The position numbers were made by a program. Positions 48,001-57,000 of a stretch of 64,000 bases of DNA are shown here, piece by piece (position 1 is the first letter of the stretch; each line of letters starts with the position of its first letter). Origin of the DNA: Callorhinchus milii (taxonomy: Eukaryota); assembly GCF_018977255.1 (NCBI RefSeq), contig NW_024704747.1, forward strand, positions 806,001-870,000, in the 5' to 3' direction.

Positions 48001-51000
48001 TGGAGCTGGCCAGCCAATAATTTAGGTGGAGAGCTTCCCATATCCTCCCCTTCCCTGTCAAACAATTTTATCCACACACTTACACACAAACACACTCGAC
48101 CAGAGGAGCGGAAGATGCACGGGAGCCATACCAAGGGCAGCGCCATGGAGAAATGCTTCCCCGGAGAGAGCGGGCAGCGGGAGGTCCACGACACCCTGTC
48201 AGAGGGGATAGACCGCATGAAGGACCTCAACGACCGCTTCGCCAAGTACATCGACAACGCCATCTTCCCGCTGCAGCGCAAGAACAGGGAGCTGCAGGAG
48301 GAGCTGCAGCTGGCTGAGAAAGAGGAGTACAACAAATCCAGCGCCATCTACAAGCGGGTTCAGTGCGACTTCAAGCTGAGGCTGGATGACCACCAGAAAG
48401 AGGTCAACGCCTTCAAAGCCGAGAAGGAGAAGTTTAAAAAATGGTGAACAAAAATACAGTGCTTACAGATGATAAAACCAAGCTTTCATCCGCTACACCC
48501 CCAACTTTTGTAGCTCTCTCCCCCAATTCCCCCCCCCCCCCATCTTGCCCCCTCTTTCCCTCTTTTAGATCACGACTGAAGACCTTCCTCTTCGACCGTG
48601 TTTACAGTCACCTCCCACCGGCTCAGTGTCAGGCTCTGCCACTGTTAAGCGATCCAACACGATACCCTCCGCCCACCCCATGAAGGATGCTATCAAGTAG
48701 AAAGAGTTCTTATTTTGTGCTTTATTTGCAGCTTTGAGAAGGAGTGCCATCAGAGAAAGGAGTGTGAGAAAGATTTAGAGGAATTGAGAAAGGCAGGTGT
48801 ATTCAAATGTCTTTTTAAAACCTATTTTTGTGGAAATAAAAATCCAGTCACAACATTAATAATCCTTGCATTTGATACAGAGCCTTATCAAGTCATTGAG
48901 ACATCTCAAAGAATATATTGTAAAGTGGATTGACTGTGTATTTTATGGGCAATAGATGGAGATAAAAGGAACTACCTTAAAGGGGAAAATTAGACAGAGG
49001 GAGAAGCAGCTTTGAGGGGAACTGTATGACCATTGTGTAGTTGAACTGCTGAAAATTACCGATTGAGCCATCGTAATGTACAATGAGCAGATTAATAACA
49101 ACAAAATGCCTTCAGTTCAGAATTCAAAATTAGTACAATACTGTAAGAAAATCATAGGTTAATTATTAACAAACTAGTAAAGTAGTATATTATTTGGTGC
49201 TTGCAGAAATACAAATAATAATAGTTGCACTTGATATAATAATACATAATCCTTGTATTTGATATATTGCCTTATCACATTCTCGAGATGCCTCAAAACA
49301 CTTCACAGGATATACTATAAATTTTACTCTATGTAGCTGAGTTTCTCCCCAGATTTCCCTATTATTGCAGCTAGAGTGAATTAATTCAGTCATGTTAATT
49401 TTACAGAAATACGATGAAACCAGTTCTACCTTAGATAAACTTCAACGTAAGATTAAACTTATGGAAGCAAATCTCACCCAACTTCAAGATGTCCGGGAGC
49501 GAGTAAGTACAGCCAAGTACCCTGTTGTTTCTGCTGTCTTGTACAGCGAAGCATCAACAGTTTGTAGTTCAGAGATAATACAATACAAAATTACATTTGT
49601 GTAGTGCCTTTCACTTCGGGAGGACATCCCAAAGATAAATATACCAATAGATAGCTACATTTGTATTATGTTTCAGTATTTTTCTGATTTTTCTCTCCTC
49701 CACACCTACACATTGAGACCAATTGCACCACTACTAATGAGACCAGTTAACTCTGCGCAAACCACGCTTGGCTATCCCGGTCAATTATGAGTTTTTAGTG
49801 CACTCTAGAAGCTGGTTTTAATCTCACTAGCTGAGAGAATAAACAGTACAGCACTTAGTGAGTCTGACATCATTCAGTGATGAGCTGACACACCGCTCCA
49901 CAGACCTCCTTACAAGATGAGAACAGAGTAAAGTGGTCGATGGAGGTGACTTAGAGGGGAGATTTGTGAAGAAATAGCTTTCACCAGCAAGTTACTGAGA
50001 TAATGCAACTAAGATTAAAAATGTTGCAGAGTGTTTTTAAAATACTTAATAGAAGCAAAACCCCAATTACAAGCTTTGTGTTGTTATTTTGCAGGAGCGT
50101 AATTATTGGAAGCATAAAGTGGACCATATCCAAAATCTGGAATCGATTGATACTTTCAAAGCCGACCTTGAGCAGTCTTTGAGAGAAATTCGTAATGAAT
50201 ATGAAGAAATTGCTAAAAAGAATAAAGAGCAAATAGAAAGATATAAACAAAAGGTTTGTTCGGAAAGGAGCAACCAAGGCTAGATATTACAAAGCCCCAT
50301 GTTCCTATCTTTGTAATCTCCTCCAGTCTTATTCTCCTGCTCTTCCCTTCCTGGTCTAATACTGTACTGATTCTTTCCTCCCTCCATCTCCAATCAATGA
50401 TGAAAATTTCAACCACCGTGCATGCCCCTGCTCTCTAAAATTCTCTCCCCAAATCCCTTCACCTCAAATCCTCTCGCCCTGCCTTCAAAATCCTCTTTAA
50501 AAATACCTTTGAATCTGCTCTAGTCAAAACCATCACACTTCTCTTCCTTTCCCATAGTCTTTGTAATGTGTTTTGAGATGTTTGTCCTACAGGAAAGATA
50601 TTGCATAAGTACTAATTGTTGTTGATACCAATAGATTGTCACACATACTAAACATATCTAAAACAATTACATGCCTTGAAATCAATTGGCTTTGTATCAT
50701 CTTACTCTTTGTGTAGTCATGACACTCATGACTCACAAAAGACTCTGGTTCTGTTTTTCCCCCATAAGGTAGGAATCTATGGGTTTAAAATCAAGTATTT
50801 TCCAGAACCTTGTTTAATGCATTTTTAAATATAGTAAGATCCCAATTTTCCTCAGTGTTCTGCCCTACAACCTGATCTTCCAAGATTGTCAATGAAAAAC
50901 ACATTCAAGGCTCCAACACTAGATCTCACTGCACAATGGGAATAGTTAGGTGCCTGGCAAACTACTTAAAAATACCAAGGGGATAGAAAATCTCTTCAAA

Positions 51001-54000: not shown

Positions 54001-57000
54001 ATATTAAATGTTATGTGATTTATGTGAGTTTTATTCTATAAATTGTGATTTTTGAATAACATGTCATATTCAGGCAGTTGTTGAGTTGAACTCTTTATCT
54101 TGTCCTTGCTGGATGGATCTAAAAGTGATATTAATGGGGATTAACCTGGAAAAATATTAGATCTAGCCAATATAATGTAATATCCCTTTCCTACTAATCT
54201 CACAACAGAGACAGTGGCGTGACTTTTGATGGTGAATTGCAGACCTCAGTACCATTGCTGCTGCCCTTTTATCAAGTGACTCACCATCTCCATTGCAGCA
54301 GCCGTCTTCCATTCAGAGTGCAGATCCATCATTAGTAAGTAAAATCTTTCTCATTGTAAATGTGAATGTCGTAACTAATGGAAAGTATTTTCTAATGATT
54401 TGATTCATATTAATTAGGTATGTAAATACCCTATTTTTCTCTAATTGTTATCAGTTACATACCATTTGATTAGCTCAGTAATTTGGCTGATCAATGCAGA
54501 TAGCATTCCGTTTACATATTTGAAGCAAATATGAGCTAAACATGTTAAATAATACTCAGTCAAATTAACATCAGGGTTAGGGTTAATTAAAACCAGTAGA
54601 AACTTCCTTCTCATTTGACAACCAAAACAGAACTCAAAGCTTTTAAATTGGATTCTGACCAAGAAGAGGGGAAGATAACTATCTATTTGAATTTGGATTT
54701 GAAGCCTTTTCATAGGAATGAGCATTACATTTGAGCAGTTTATTCTCAGATGGGATTTAGGCAGAATGTTGCCTTTAAGAGGAGCTTGTTTAGTGGCTTG
54801 ATTATATCCTTAGTCTCCTGAGTTCTGATGGGGTTTTCCGGATTAATTGCGTCCTTCCACTATGTGGACCATGGTCATGCATAGCAAGAGTGCCACAGCT
54901 CTTGAGACAAAGTGTGTACGGGTACGATTCATATCGTCATTCCTGCAGTGAAAGCTTGACTGATTTTCCAGGTAATGCTGGGAGTCTGAGGCAGATATTT
55001 CCATTTCATACACCATCCTCCCTTCTGACAATTCTAGCACTCTCCACAGGGTAGAGTGCAATATTATATCAGACACTCAAATAGAGCTTGCCAATGAGAG
55101 TCCGCAGAGTGGAATCTGCAATATTAGAGGCTTGCCTATTCTGCCTAGAGTCTGCAAGCCCAGTCTGCCTATTAGAATGACTCTATTTCAAAACATAATG
55201 ATATGTTTCCAAGTCAAAAGCTTACTTACATTTGTGTGTTTGCTGCAGTAGATCCAGGCAATTTCTCACCAGACTGAGTGAAGAACTTAGCCGTAGCATA
55301 ATTAACACATAAGTGGCTTATTAAAACGAATGGTAATTTGGCATTCAATACCACGCTACTGTTTAATTCAATTCAGTCCTCTAACACCTCTTTGATCTTA
55401 AACAAGAAAGACAAACCCATCTGTCTGATTGATAGGTACACAGTACTCTTGACTTGTGACAGAAGCTAATTAATTATACAACAGGAAACAGTAAACATGT
55501 GTACATGATGAAGAAGAGACAGATAGTAGGGAAGGAGAAGGGTTCAGGTGTGATTACTGATCTTTCTTGGAACCTTTCAAGTCAATGTGAAGCTGATGTC
55601 AGCTAATCAAATAGCAGGTTGCATTTAAGGGCATTTGACTATGAAAGTAGTGGATGTGTGACTCAGATATTCAGTCAACAATGGCTGATGCAATACCAAT
55701 CACCCCCTACAACATAAACCCTGGATAAGCGCCTGAGGCCAGAAATTACTCATTATTTTAGCCATAAAACTACTTTGTTTTAAAGTTTAAATTTGCACAG
55801 AATGTTGGAAAATTGTTTCAATTAGTCTTAGCCTGGAACCGAGTTTTCCACAGTTCCTTTTATGATAAGTCTGAATTTAAGAATTCTGTTCGATCGTAAA
55901 TTCCGAGACAGTGATCTTAAGGATAGATAATACACTGCTAGTTAACTCTTTATCTGCTTCTAAAATGGCATTGACTTGTCTCTGCTTTGAGAAGGGAAAA
56001 CATCCTGACAGCATTGAAGAGGATAATGCAAAACTCACAGCTACCGACAAAATACATTATGAAGACCCAATAGGATTTGATTTTACATTGCACAAATCCA
56101 CCAACTTGGGAACTTCCCAGGGTTCACAATACATCAGTCATAGCTTTCGCTTTTCAATCAGTTTCTATGAAAGATTTTTAAAGTGAGGTTTAGTACCGGG
56201 TATTTGTTTTGATAAAAAAAAGATACGTTAATAGTAACACATACCTCAGCTTGAAACTGTACAGAGTAGGTCCTTATGTTTATTTATAGGACTGCAGGAA
56301 GCAAATCAAATTATTAGTGATTTTGTTGTACAAAATTCTTAAAAAGATGTAGGAATATGGCTGTTCACATTTGGACTGCTAGATTTCGCTAACCCAGTGG
56401 TATGTGGAAAGCAGCTTTATTAGAAAAATGACTGTTGCTTCATGATTGGTACCTGACCTACATTTTTACTTATGTATCATTGCTAAACTACTGCTTTGTA
56501 ATTAAGTTTCACCCACAAACTGTACAGTCAATCTACTTTAGAGTATACTCTGTGAAATACTCTGTATACATTTTGAAATTTCTCAACGACATGATAAGGT
56601 GCTAATCAAATGCAAGGATTAGTATAAGTGCTAATAGTACGACAATGCAGATTGTTTAAAAGTTGCAAAAATGAATTTACTTGATTACTCTTATTCTCTG
56701 TAGGTCATAAAGAATAAAAAATAATAAAGAATAAAAGCACTGCGGATTATAGAGAACCAACACAGCAAAGCTAGGATAATAGTGTTCCATACCAATAAAT
56801 TATAACATGTTTAAAAGAGTACTTTAACAAATTCAGTTGATACTTTCTATACATTACTCAATTTCTTATTTATGTTATTGCAGTAAGTATTGCTTATAAA
56901 AACCTTCCAAATCTGTCACAAACCATTATAAGTGCAACGCTCCAGTAAATCATTCTCATATCAGTTTAAAGTTTCATTATTTGGTTATATTAAATGCATT

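Follow-up and report, generated by a model that had tools for sequence, protein, structure and literature searches.

A divergent Callorhinchus milii gene belongs to an old, unnamed intermediate-filament family of cartilaginous fishes

The stretch of Callorhinchus milii DNA analysed here, referred to as the window, comprises 64,000 nucleotides (nt) of contig NW_024704747.1 (positions 806,001 to 870,000) and carries, at window positions 48115-56724 on the forward strand, a gene for an intermediate-filament (IF) protein of unusual sequence. The initial annotation of the window described a gene of type III architecture and offered a local, desmin-derived duplicate as one hypothesis, which raises the question of whether this locus holds a lone desmin relative or something older. 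Our analyses identified an intact, highly divergent IF gene. It belongs to an ancient IF family of chondrichthyans that has so far carried no name and comprises two clades, A and B, and within clade A it is the most divergent member. The gene is no lone desmin-like oddity, and membership of this family replaces the picture of a local duplicate. The family's rod violates rules that the IF literature, in the portions available to us, treats as universal or near-universal.

The gene and its exon layout

Ten exons had been proposed to splice into a single open reading frame of about 365 amino acids (aa), and their intervals, lengths, phases and open frame were all confirmed by computation from the coordinates. 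The exon lengths (329, 61, 96, 159, 87, 194, 35, 36, 80 and 21 nt) sum to 1098 nt, i.e., 365 codons and a stop, with outgoing phases of 2, 0, 0, 0, 0, 2, 1, 1 and 0. The whole-codon parts of all exons are free of stops, the four split codons (TG/C, AG/A, G/AA and G/AA) are unable to form them, and each intron of the model ends in an AG acceptor preceded by a pyrimidine tract. The locus is also represented in NCBI by record P0001, a 352-aa protein that was automatically labelled "glial fibrillary acidic protein-like [Callorhinchus milii]" and is 100% identical over exon 1. The exons are as follows.

Exon 1: 48115..48443, forward strand; 329 nt, ending in phase 2; P0001 residues 1-110 at 99% identity (tblastn); short acidic head (~31 aa), then coil 1A, which includes the helix initiation motif LNDRFAKYI (48226-48252), and the first part of coil 1B
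Exon 2: 48732..48792, forward strand; 61 nt, coil 1B; P0001 residues 111-130 at 100%
Exon 3: 49407..49502, forward strand; 96 nt, 32 aa, coil 1B; mapped by P0001
Exon 4: 50095..50253, forward strand; 159 nt, encoding 53 aa that cover the last part of coil 1B, linker L12 (ESIDTF, 50140-50157) and the first part of coil 2
Exon 5: 51313..51399, forward strand; 87 nt, 29 aa, coil 2; mapped by P0001
Exon 6: 52225..52418, forward strand; 194 nt, coil 2B with the helix termination motif EYQELHNVKARIEQEMATYKNLL (52327-52395)
Exon 7: 53280..53314, forward strand; 35 nt, start of the tail (RDYSSQPCTPET); mapped by P0001
Candidate exon 8 (cassette): 53414..53449, forward strand; 36 nt, in frame, with a good acceptor and a consensus donor
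Exon 9: 53541..53638, forward strand; acidic tail (DDSYDEDDDDDDDDDICRNTEGLDDE); last coding exon in the NCBI model
Candidate exon 10 (alternative last exon): 56704..56724, forward strand; VIKNKK followed by a stop, acceptor present

A tblastn search of the window mapped P0001 letter for letter to exons 1-7 and 9, so that the ten-exon model stood except for exons 8 and 10, which the NCBI record does not contain. P0001 joins exon 7 directly to exon 9, and it runs past the exon 9 donor, from which the initial annotation had spliced out at 53620, to a stop at 53636-53638. Candidate exon 10 has a good splice signal followed by AATAAA at 56713, 56723 and 56730. At the position of exon 8, shark proteins carry about 11 extra residues whose similarity is too weak for scoring, and the C-terminus of the shark and ray relatives reads ...LCALDQD. 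Exons 8 and 10 may be alternative exons and are best regarded as uncorroborated candidates.

The 61 nt of exon 2 were correctly proposed, with a feature that the initial annotation overlooked: this length works only with a GC donor (AAAG/GCAGGT). The alternative GT donor, located 4 nt downstream of the exon end, would give 65 nt, break the frame and bring in a stop early in exon 3. Intron 2 (48793-49406) is accordingly a GC-AG intron, as P0001 also requires. GC donors are a small minority among vertebrate introns. Two further observations concern the 5' end, where the segment directly upstream of exon 1 (47400-48000) is rich in G+C and CpG and forms a candidate CpG-island promoter, and where exon 1 itself is far richer in G+C than the later exons and the introns.

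Identification as an IF gene came from several searches. When exon translations were searched one by one rather than as a joined model, Pfam Filament matched exon 1 (27.3 bits, profile 5-80), exon 4 (27.1 bits, profile 153-194) and exon 6 (27.6 bits, profile 262-309) colinearly, which bears out the three IF rod hallmarks noted at the outset; the other four of the seven translations scanned singly gave no match to this profile. Whole records scored well above the cut-off of 40 bits (P0001 88.2, P0006 94.9 and P0007 103 bits), and Pfam found in them only Filament and two weak coiled-coil matches, and no lamin tail domain. Amongst solved structures, the best match of exon 1 was vimentin coil 1A (E=0.009) and that of exon 6 vimentin coil 2B (E=0.0006), with 2B fragments of lamin and keratin ranking next. 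LNDRFAKYI and EYQELHNVKARIEQEMATYKNLL align with the helix initiation and termination motifs of vimentin. When P0001 was looked up in the ESM Atlas, the clusters retrieved were all generic Filament ones (keratin-like, gefiltin, internexin and NF-M), at scores of 0.93-0.95, and added nothing to the Pfam result. A tblastn search with six family proteins located no second family copy in the window, where this is the single IF gene.

The exon series was likewise as first described: 61, 96, 159, 87 and 194 nt, with the phases then given, were confirmed from the coordinates. In type III genes the long first exon is followed by exons of 61, 96, 162, 126 and 221 nt; a literature search for type III exon sizes found none. 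Aligned proteins place one residue fewer in exon 4, 13 fewer in exon 5 (deletions of 6 and 7 relative to the aligned canonical type III/IV stretch), and in exon 6 a loss of 11 and a gain of 2. These indels would account for the observed 159, 87 and 194 nt: when they are subtracted from 162, 126 and 221, the match is exact.

Five introns interrupt the rod, in a layout that differs from that of type IV neurofilament genes, whose introns are few. Because the rod has five introns, and type IV genes differ from types I-III in intron positions according to the accessible part of one report (PMC2075511), the layout is of the I-III kind. Type IV identity was dropped on account of these intron positions. 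The borders of exons 3 and 4 are also common to the family, since predicted shark isoforms drop exactly the stretches concerned: isoform X2 of the zebra shark Stegostoma tigrinum (P0005) is without the 32 residues equivalent to exon 3, and P0003 and P0004 are without the 53 residues equivalent to exon 4. Such in-frame skipping of one or the other exon recurs in the predicted shark and ray isoforms P0003, P0004, P0005 and P0013-P0018, and would remove part of coil 1B or of the L12 region.

Range and rod of the chondrichthyan family

A profile built from three full-length records gave 29 named matches, every one of them chondrichthyan (sharks, rays, skate and chimaera). A HMMER scan with a 15-sequence profile and no word filter, covering 1.84 billion representatives, yielded 554 matches at E<=0.001; only four of these reached E<=1e-30, and all four were family members. 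Scores within the family lie at 300-600 bits, as against at most 97 bits for any named non-chondrichthyan protein, the best of which, ranking below the family fragments, were a type I keratin model from a turtle (97 bits), an uncharacterised protein from a fish (90) and desmins (86-88). As far as protein databases show, the family appears restricted to cartilaginous fishes among named proteins, in keeping with the lineage restriction suggested initially. The suggestion that the gene has no close counterpart also held, as no one-to-one orthology to any characterised IF was found among the proteins that the searches returned. Three signature motifs occur in 22-27 of the 34 family-set sequences and in none of 322 others.

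The family falls into two clades, A (352-355 aa) and B (340-350 aa), both with 100/100 support in the tree. Each contains Callorhinchus together with elasmobranchs, and since both lineages are present in each clade, the A/B split predates the divergence of chimaeras from sharks and rays, which took place about 400 million years ago. C. milii has at least three family genes. P0029, P0032 and P0177, which come from outside the window, represent the third gene, a clade A member that ends as the shark proteins do, in ...ENEDLCALDQD. P0029 is 77.5% identical over 151 columns to the clade A protein of the sevengill shark Heptranchias perlo; the window protein shares 60.1% with the same shark protein over 343 columns and 61.6% with P0029. 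It stands at the base of clade A (87/89, not starred), is the most divergent A member, and may represent either a third lineage of long standing or a rapidly evolving duplicate of holocephalans. Separately, clade B proteins (P0020-P0028) end in ...NKMWC (NKMWA in C. milii), with a C-terminal Cys in six of seven aligned sequences that does not form a CaaX box.

Automatic names vary by species across a single clade and include GFAP-like, desmin-like, vimentin-like and peripherin-like. A literature search, in the texts that could be consulted, found no description of this chondrichthyan family, and the available part of PMC8733776 makes no mention of it.

The rod itself was compared by means of a MAFFT alignment with ten canonical proteins (type III, type IV and cyclostome IFs) and a HMMER alignment to full-length vimentin (PDB 8rve). 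All A and B members share the same indels, i.e., one residue gained in coil 1A, seven lost in coil 1B, one lost at the Trp of EEWYK, then six (clade A) or seven (clade B), seven and 11 lost, and two gained at the rod end. Coil 2 is 25 residues shorter in total than in canonical type III/IV proteins, and the net difference from vimentin is -31 residues. By a single rule applied to all, the rod measures 273-274 aa in the family versus 304-307 aa in canonical proteins, below the ~310 residues by which a cytoplasmic rod is recognised. The lamin-type 42-residue insert in coil 1B is absent, as the initial annotation had stated, and coil 1B is in fact seven residues shorter than that of vimentin. Lamin identity was dropped for want of this insert, which also marks the long-1B IFs of invertebrates.

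The 11-residue gap coincides with the site of the canonical stutter. In the window gene, the stutter segment (11 residues in canonical IFs) is missing from exon 6 between 52266 and 52267, i.e., between E258 and I259, and since this segment is lost, coil 2B reads as unbroken heptads. The stutter has been called an obligatory feature of all IFs in the portion of PMC3065449 that was available. We examined the register of family proteins of at least 300 aa with a score anchored on the Tyr of EYQxLLxVK. The heptad register was unchanged back to residue -56 in 25 of 25 family proteins, whereas it shifted by 3 in 93 of the 103 scorable non-family representatives (the remaining 40 of 143 lacked either the anchor or sufficient length) and in all 119 desmin-like matches. 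A smaller run gave a continuous register in 15/15 family proteins and a shift in 37/41 canonical ones, the four exceptions being one tie and three garbled or truncated models. The coil 2B stutter used to recognise IFs is thus absent from the family.

An AlphaFold2 monomer prediction for the window protein (15-row alignment, mean predicted local distance difference test score 81.6) showed helices at residues 19-177 and 184-312 with disordered ends. The only helix break, at residues 178-183, is ESIDTF at the expected site of linker L12. Prediction of a rod homodimer (two copies of residues 28-314) scored 0.05 against a mark of 0.32 in a run without controls, and counts neither way.

Charge and terminal motifs depart from the canonical pattern as well. 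Family heads carry -2 to -4 versus +2 to +8 in five canonical proteins, and family rods -2 to +3 versus -15 to -20 in the same five; clade A tails lie at -8 to -17. The head encoded in the window, at about 31 aa, is acidic and has a single Arg. Cysteines number 5-9 in the family versus 1-4 in the canonical proteins scored. The SSYRR-type head motif was found in 0/34 family-set sequences versus 141/322 others, the RDG tail motif in 0/34 versus 131/322, and EEWYK in 0/34, the three type III motifs together ranging from 131 to 204 of the 322 others. Precomputed Pfam results list PF00038 alone, with no Filament_head, for 29/29 family matches, and the RDY junction motif of exon 7 is family-specific. 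The introns follow the I-III style, and the head and tail motifs, rod length, stutter and charge pattern are not those of type III proteins.

With regard to affinity, a FastTree analysis of 131 rods (27 of 158 were dropped as incomplete; 30 proteins were named of 150 listed) recovered the family with support of 100 inside a 64-row set (98) of type III, type IV and cyclostome IFs. Keratins of types I and II lay separate from that set.

Possible assembly, rival explanations and neighbourhood

The best overall explanation of these features, and one we consider rather probable, is that cartilaginous fishes have a family of short-rod, stutterless IF proteins that self-assembles into a separate, non-canonical polymer. 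The subunit would be a dimer, wound as a parallel coiled coil, that falls short of the canonical IF dimer by about 4.6 nm, a figure that follows from 31 residues at a coiled-coil rise of ~0.148 nm per residue. In-register packing with desmin, vimentin or neurofilament proteins would probably be impossible, because the family departs from canonical IFs in the length of its rod, in the stutter and in the way head and rod charges pair. Assembly would most likely take place between family members (A and B together, or A alone), since these have exactly equal rod geometry, and the resulting polymer would be located in some specialised cell type, in an arrangement resembling that of the short-rod filensin, which needs phakinin in the beaded filaments of the lens.

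A stronger version of this proposal is tentative: a separate IF system of cartilaginous fishes, built of short-rod, stutterless, acidic-head subunits under assembly rules of its own, with clades A and B perhaps as obligate partners. If true, the polymer would have a shorter axial repeat and no pairing of basic heads with acidic rods, and would be a natural counter-example to the indispensability of the stutter and of the ~310-residue rod.

The same head and rod features could be read in another way, namely that the protein is no filament subunit and instead binds desmin or vimentin filaments, at their ends or along their sides, and caps, shortens or remodels them. Vimentin deprived of its head is not known to assemble beyond small oligomers, and the acidic head of the window protein, with ~31 aa, one Arg and a predicted helix starting as early as residue 19, would suit such a regulator. 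The protein retains the motifs at both ends of the rod, through which canonical IFs overlap head to tail, and desmin is among the best non-family profile matches (86-88 bits). Against this, a rod that is 31 residues shorter and near neutral offers neither register nor charge match to canonical rods, and equal rod geometry in two clades older than the chimaera-shark split fits better with partners inside the family. We regard a regulator as rather unlikely.

Several points weigh against a self-assembling chondrichthyan family with the window gene as a working member. The assembly mechanism is one that we infer in its entirety, and the NCBI model and the shark isoform records are themselves predictions. 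The search that returned 29 proteins scored only the 8000 candidates sharing most words, and restriction to cartilaginous fishes was judged from predicted proteomes. A simple score of hydrophobicity, devised for this analysis, served as the stutter test, and 10 of the 103 non-family representatives were also without the shift; five such rows, when examined, included one tie and three models that were visibly garbled or cut short. Placement is weak: in an IQ-TREE analysis of 54 rows chosen to represent clades (the rows being without GFAP, chondrichthyan desmin, BFSP1/2, syncoilin and IFFO), the family had 100/100 support and a stem of 1.83, and was unplaced inside the clade of type III, type IV and cyclostome IFs (96/86). 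Constraining it with keratins cost 6.24 log-likelihood units, and the approximately unbiased (AU) test gave at most a borderline rejection of that grouping (p=0.053). Lastly, the window copy has an end branch of 0.56, where the other A-type gene of C. milii has 0.23 and the elasmobranch A members have 0.03-0.10, and its a/d core is no better conserved than the remainder (64% versus 61-66% identity, Fisher p>=0.2).

The last of these points agrees with the fast evolution proposed at the outset (0.56 versus 0.03-0.23 for its kin), and it suggests that the window copy could be a redundant duplicate drifting under relaxed constraint toward a pseudogene while the family remains functional. Relaxed constraint may indeed apply, because the a/d test revealed no excess of core conservation; the tail of this copy has been replaced by a poly-Asp run, and its identity to the Heptranchias A protein is about 60% against 77.5% for P0029. 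Drift of this kind is at odds with the eight exons of the NCBI model, which are all open with usable splice sites, and with the retention of the end motifs and of all family-specific indels. The heptad register is intact, with an a/d hydrophobic score of 0.59 that lies inside the family range, and 15 of the 26 a/d changes exchange one hydrophobic residue for another. A decaying duplicate is accordingly an improbable account of this gene, and a functional, if fast-evolving, family member is preferred.

Since the stem is long, tree resolution is limited. Constraining the family with desmin cost 5.45 log-likelihood units (AU p=0.35), and its descent from desmin is, at the level of sequence, neither supported nor rejected. 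The idea of a lone local duplicate does not hold as stated, the family being old, two-claded and represented by at least three C. milii genes. Keratin identity was dropped, weakly, on the basis of the tree.

The desmin result also bears on whether the gene is an extremely diverged orthologue of an IF gene that already has a name, for instance filensin, phakinin, syncoilin or one of the type III genes, desmin included. Such an orthologue would agree with the GFAP-, desmin-, vimentin- and peripherin-like names in NCBI, with the AU value for a desmin clade, with the filensin rod of likewise ~279 aa, and with TMEM198 adjoining the gene, as DES lies near TMEM198 in mammals. The names lose their weight in that one clade bears different ones from species to species, and chondrichthyans also have type III-like proteins of canonical length (e.g., a skate vimentin-like protein of 450 aa). 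The type III head and tail motifs are missing from all 34 family-set sequences, and filensin, as described in the part of the source consulted, has 755 aa with a long repeat tail, unlike the family. We judge a hidden orthologue to be very improbable, less probable even than a drifting duplicate, and retain the separate family.

The neighbouring genes recognised in the window are the following.

Ku80/XRCC5 exons: 30875-31156 and 36298-36795, reverse strand; Pfam Ku_N 37.4 bits and Ku 39.4 bits
TMEM169: 43087-43743, reverse strand; Pfam match on an open frame, 211.3 bits
TMEM198: 62840-63724, reverse strand; Pfam match on an open frame, 140.5 bits

We take TMEM198, TMEM169 and XRCC5 to lie on human 2q35, as DES does, and DES to lie near TMEM198 in mammals. 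Of the gene context invoked initially, TMEM198 does adjoin the IF gene, and DES is not in the window. This neighbourhood fits a desmin-derived origin without demonstrating it.

Other features of the window are recorded here for completeness. A SINE-like (short interspersed nuclear element-like) repeat with the 21-base core AATAATCCTTGCATTTGATAT has 28 matches (<=3 mismatches) against 0 expected, e.g., at 48858, 49245, 51531, 51793, 53095 (reverse), 53153 (reverse) and 56603 (reverse); eight matches, on both strands, lie within introns of the IF gene. On the forward strand, an open frame at 10300-10758 ending in ...CRSPQCRICFQGPEQ resembles the first part of a RING-CH (MARCH-type) domain that an intron interrupts and gave no Pfam match at E<=0.01. 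Long simple repeats (4210-5700) surround the N run 4893-5103, a masked stretch or a gap, and there the frames consist of runs of T, Q/P, N/H or V/C, and GC skew reaches -0.457 in 4001-6000.

Comparison with known systems

In the IF field, a rod of set length, a stutter in coil 2B and a basic head count as near-invariant requirements for assembly, and this family breaks all three. Its retention in chimaeras and elasmobranchs, with equal rod geometry in two paralogous clades, makes it a natural experiment on which rod features are needed. Automatic naming currently conceals a distinct gene family, and correcting the annotation would be useful even if the family proved to be a minor, tissue-specific oddity.

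Amongst known systems, type III IFs are the obvious reference. The family resembles them in its Filament rod, in the LNDRF...YI and EYQ.L.NVK...Y..LL end motifs, in the absence of the 42-residue insert, in exon sizes that would equal the type III series once indels are taken into account, and in falling within the type III plus IV clade in both trees (98; 96/86). It differs from them in a stutterless rod of 273-274 aa, one extra residue in coil 1A, an acidic head and a neutral rod.

The closest parallel in rod length is filensin (BFSP1), which, in the accessible part of PMC2119801, is described as having a 38-aa head, the shortest known IF rod (279 aa) and a 29-residue cut in coil 2. According to the same portion of that source, filensin alone forms no regular filaments, and the need for a partner has been proposed (PMC2119801). 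The family, with a rod of about 274 aa and 25 residues cut from coil 2, may be alike in its working. On the basis of this description, filensin is nevertheless a different protein: it has 755 aa with a long repeat tail compared with 340-355 aa in the family, in which coil 1 is also altered.

With respect to the stutter, the nearest counterpart is an engineered one. Vimentin rendered stutterless by the insertion of three residues begins to assemble and then fails to elongate, according to the part of PMC3087291 available. The family shares with this mutant the continuous heptads of coil 2B. Its loss of the stutter, however, is natural, involves an 11-residue deletion, is accompanied by other changes in the rod and occurs in 25/25 scored proteins, whereas the mutant is otherwise canonical.

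Finally, the extra 'desmin' copies of killifish (P0047 of Nothobranchius, P0050 of Austrofundulus, and P0052) show that fast-evolving rods with heptad-sized deletions exist elsewhere, and one such deletion, of 7 residues in coil 1B, aligns with that of the family. Unlike the family, they are sister to true desmin (98/90) and are without the family motifs. Their nearest matches are teleost desmin a and b, at 40-47% identity, and they exist beside ordinary desmin a/b. The stutter is retained, as all three entered the register test and none was among the deviating rows listed. As candidate bony-fish orthologues of the family they were rejected, given their sister position to desmin, their nearest matches to desmin a/b and their retained stutter. 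We read the coil 1B deletion that killifish copies and the family have in common as a parallel event, not as shown homology.

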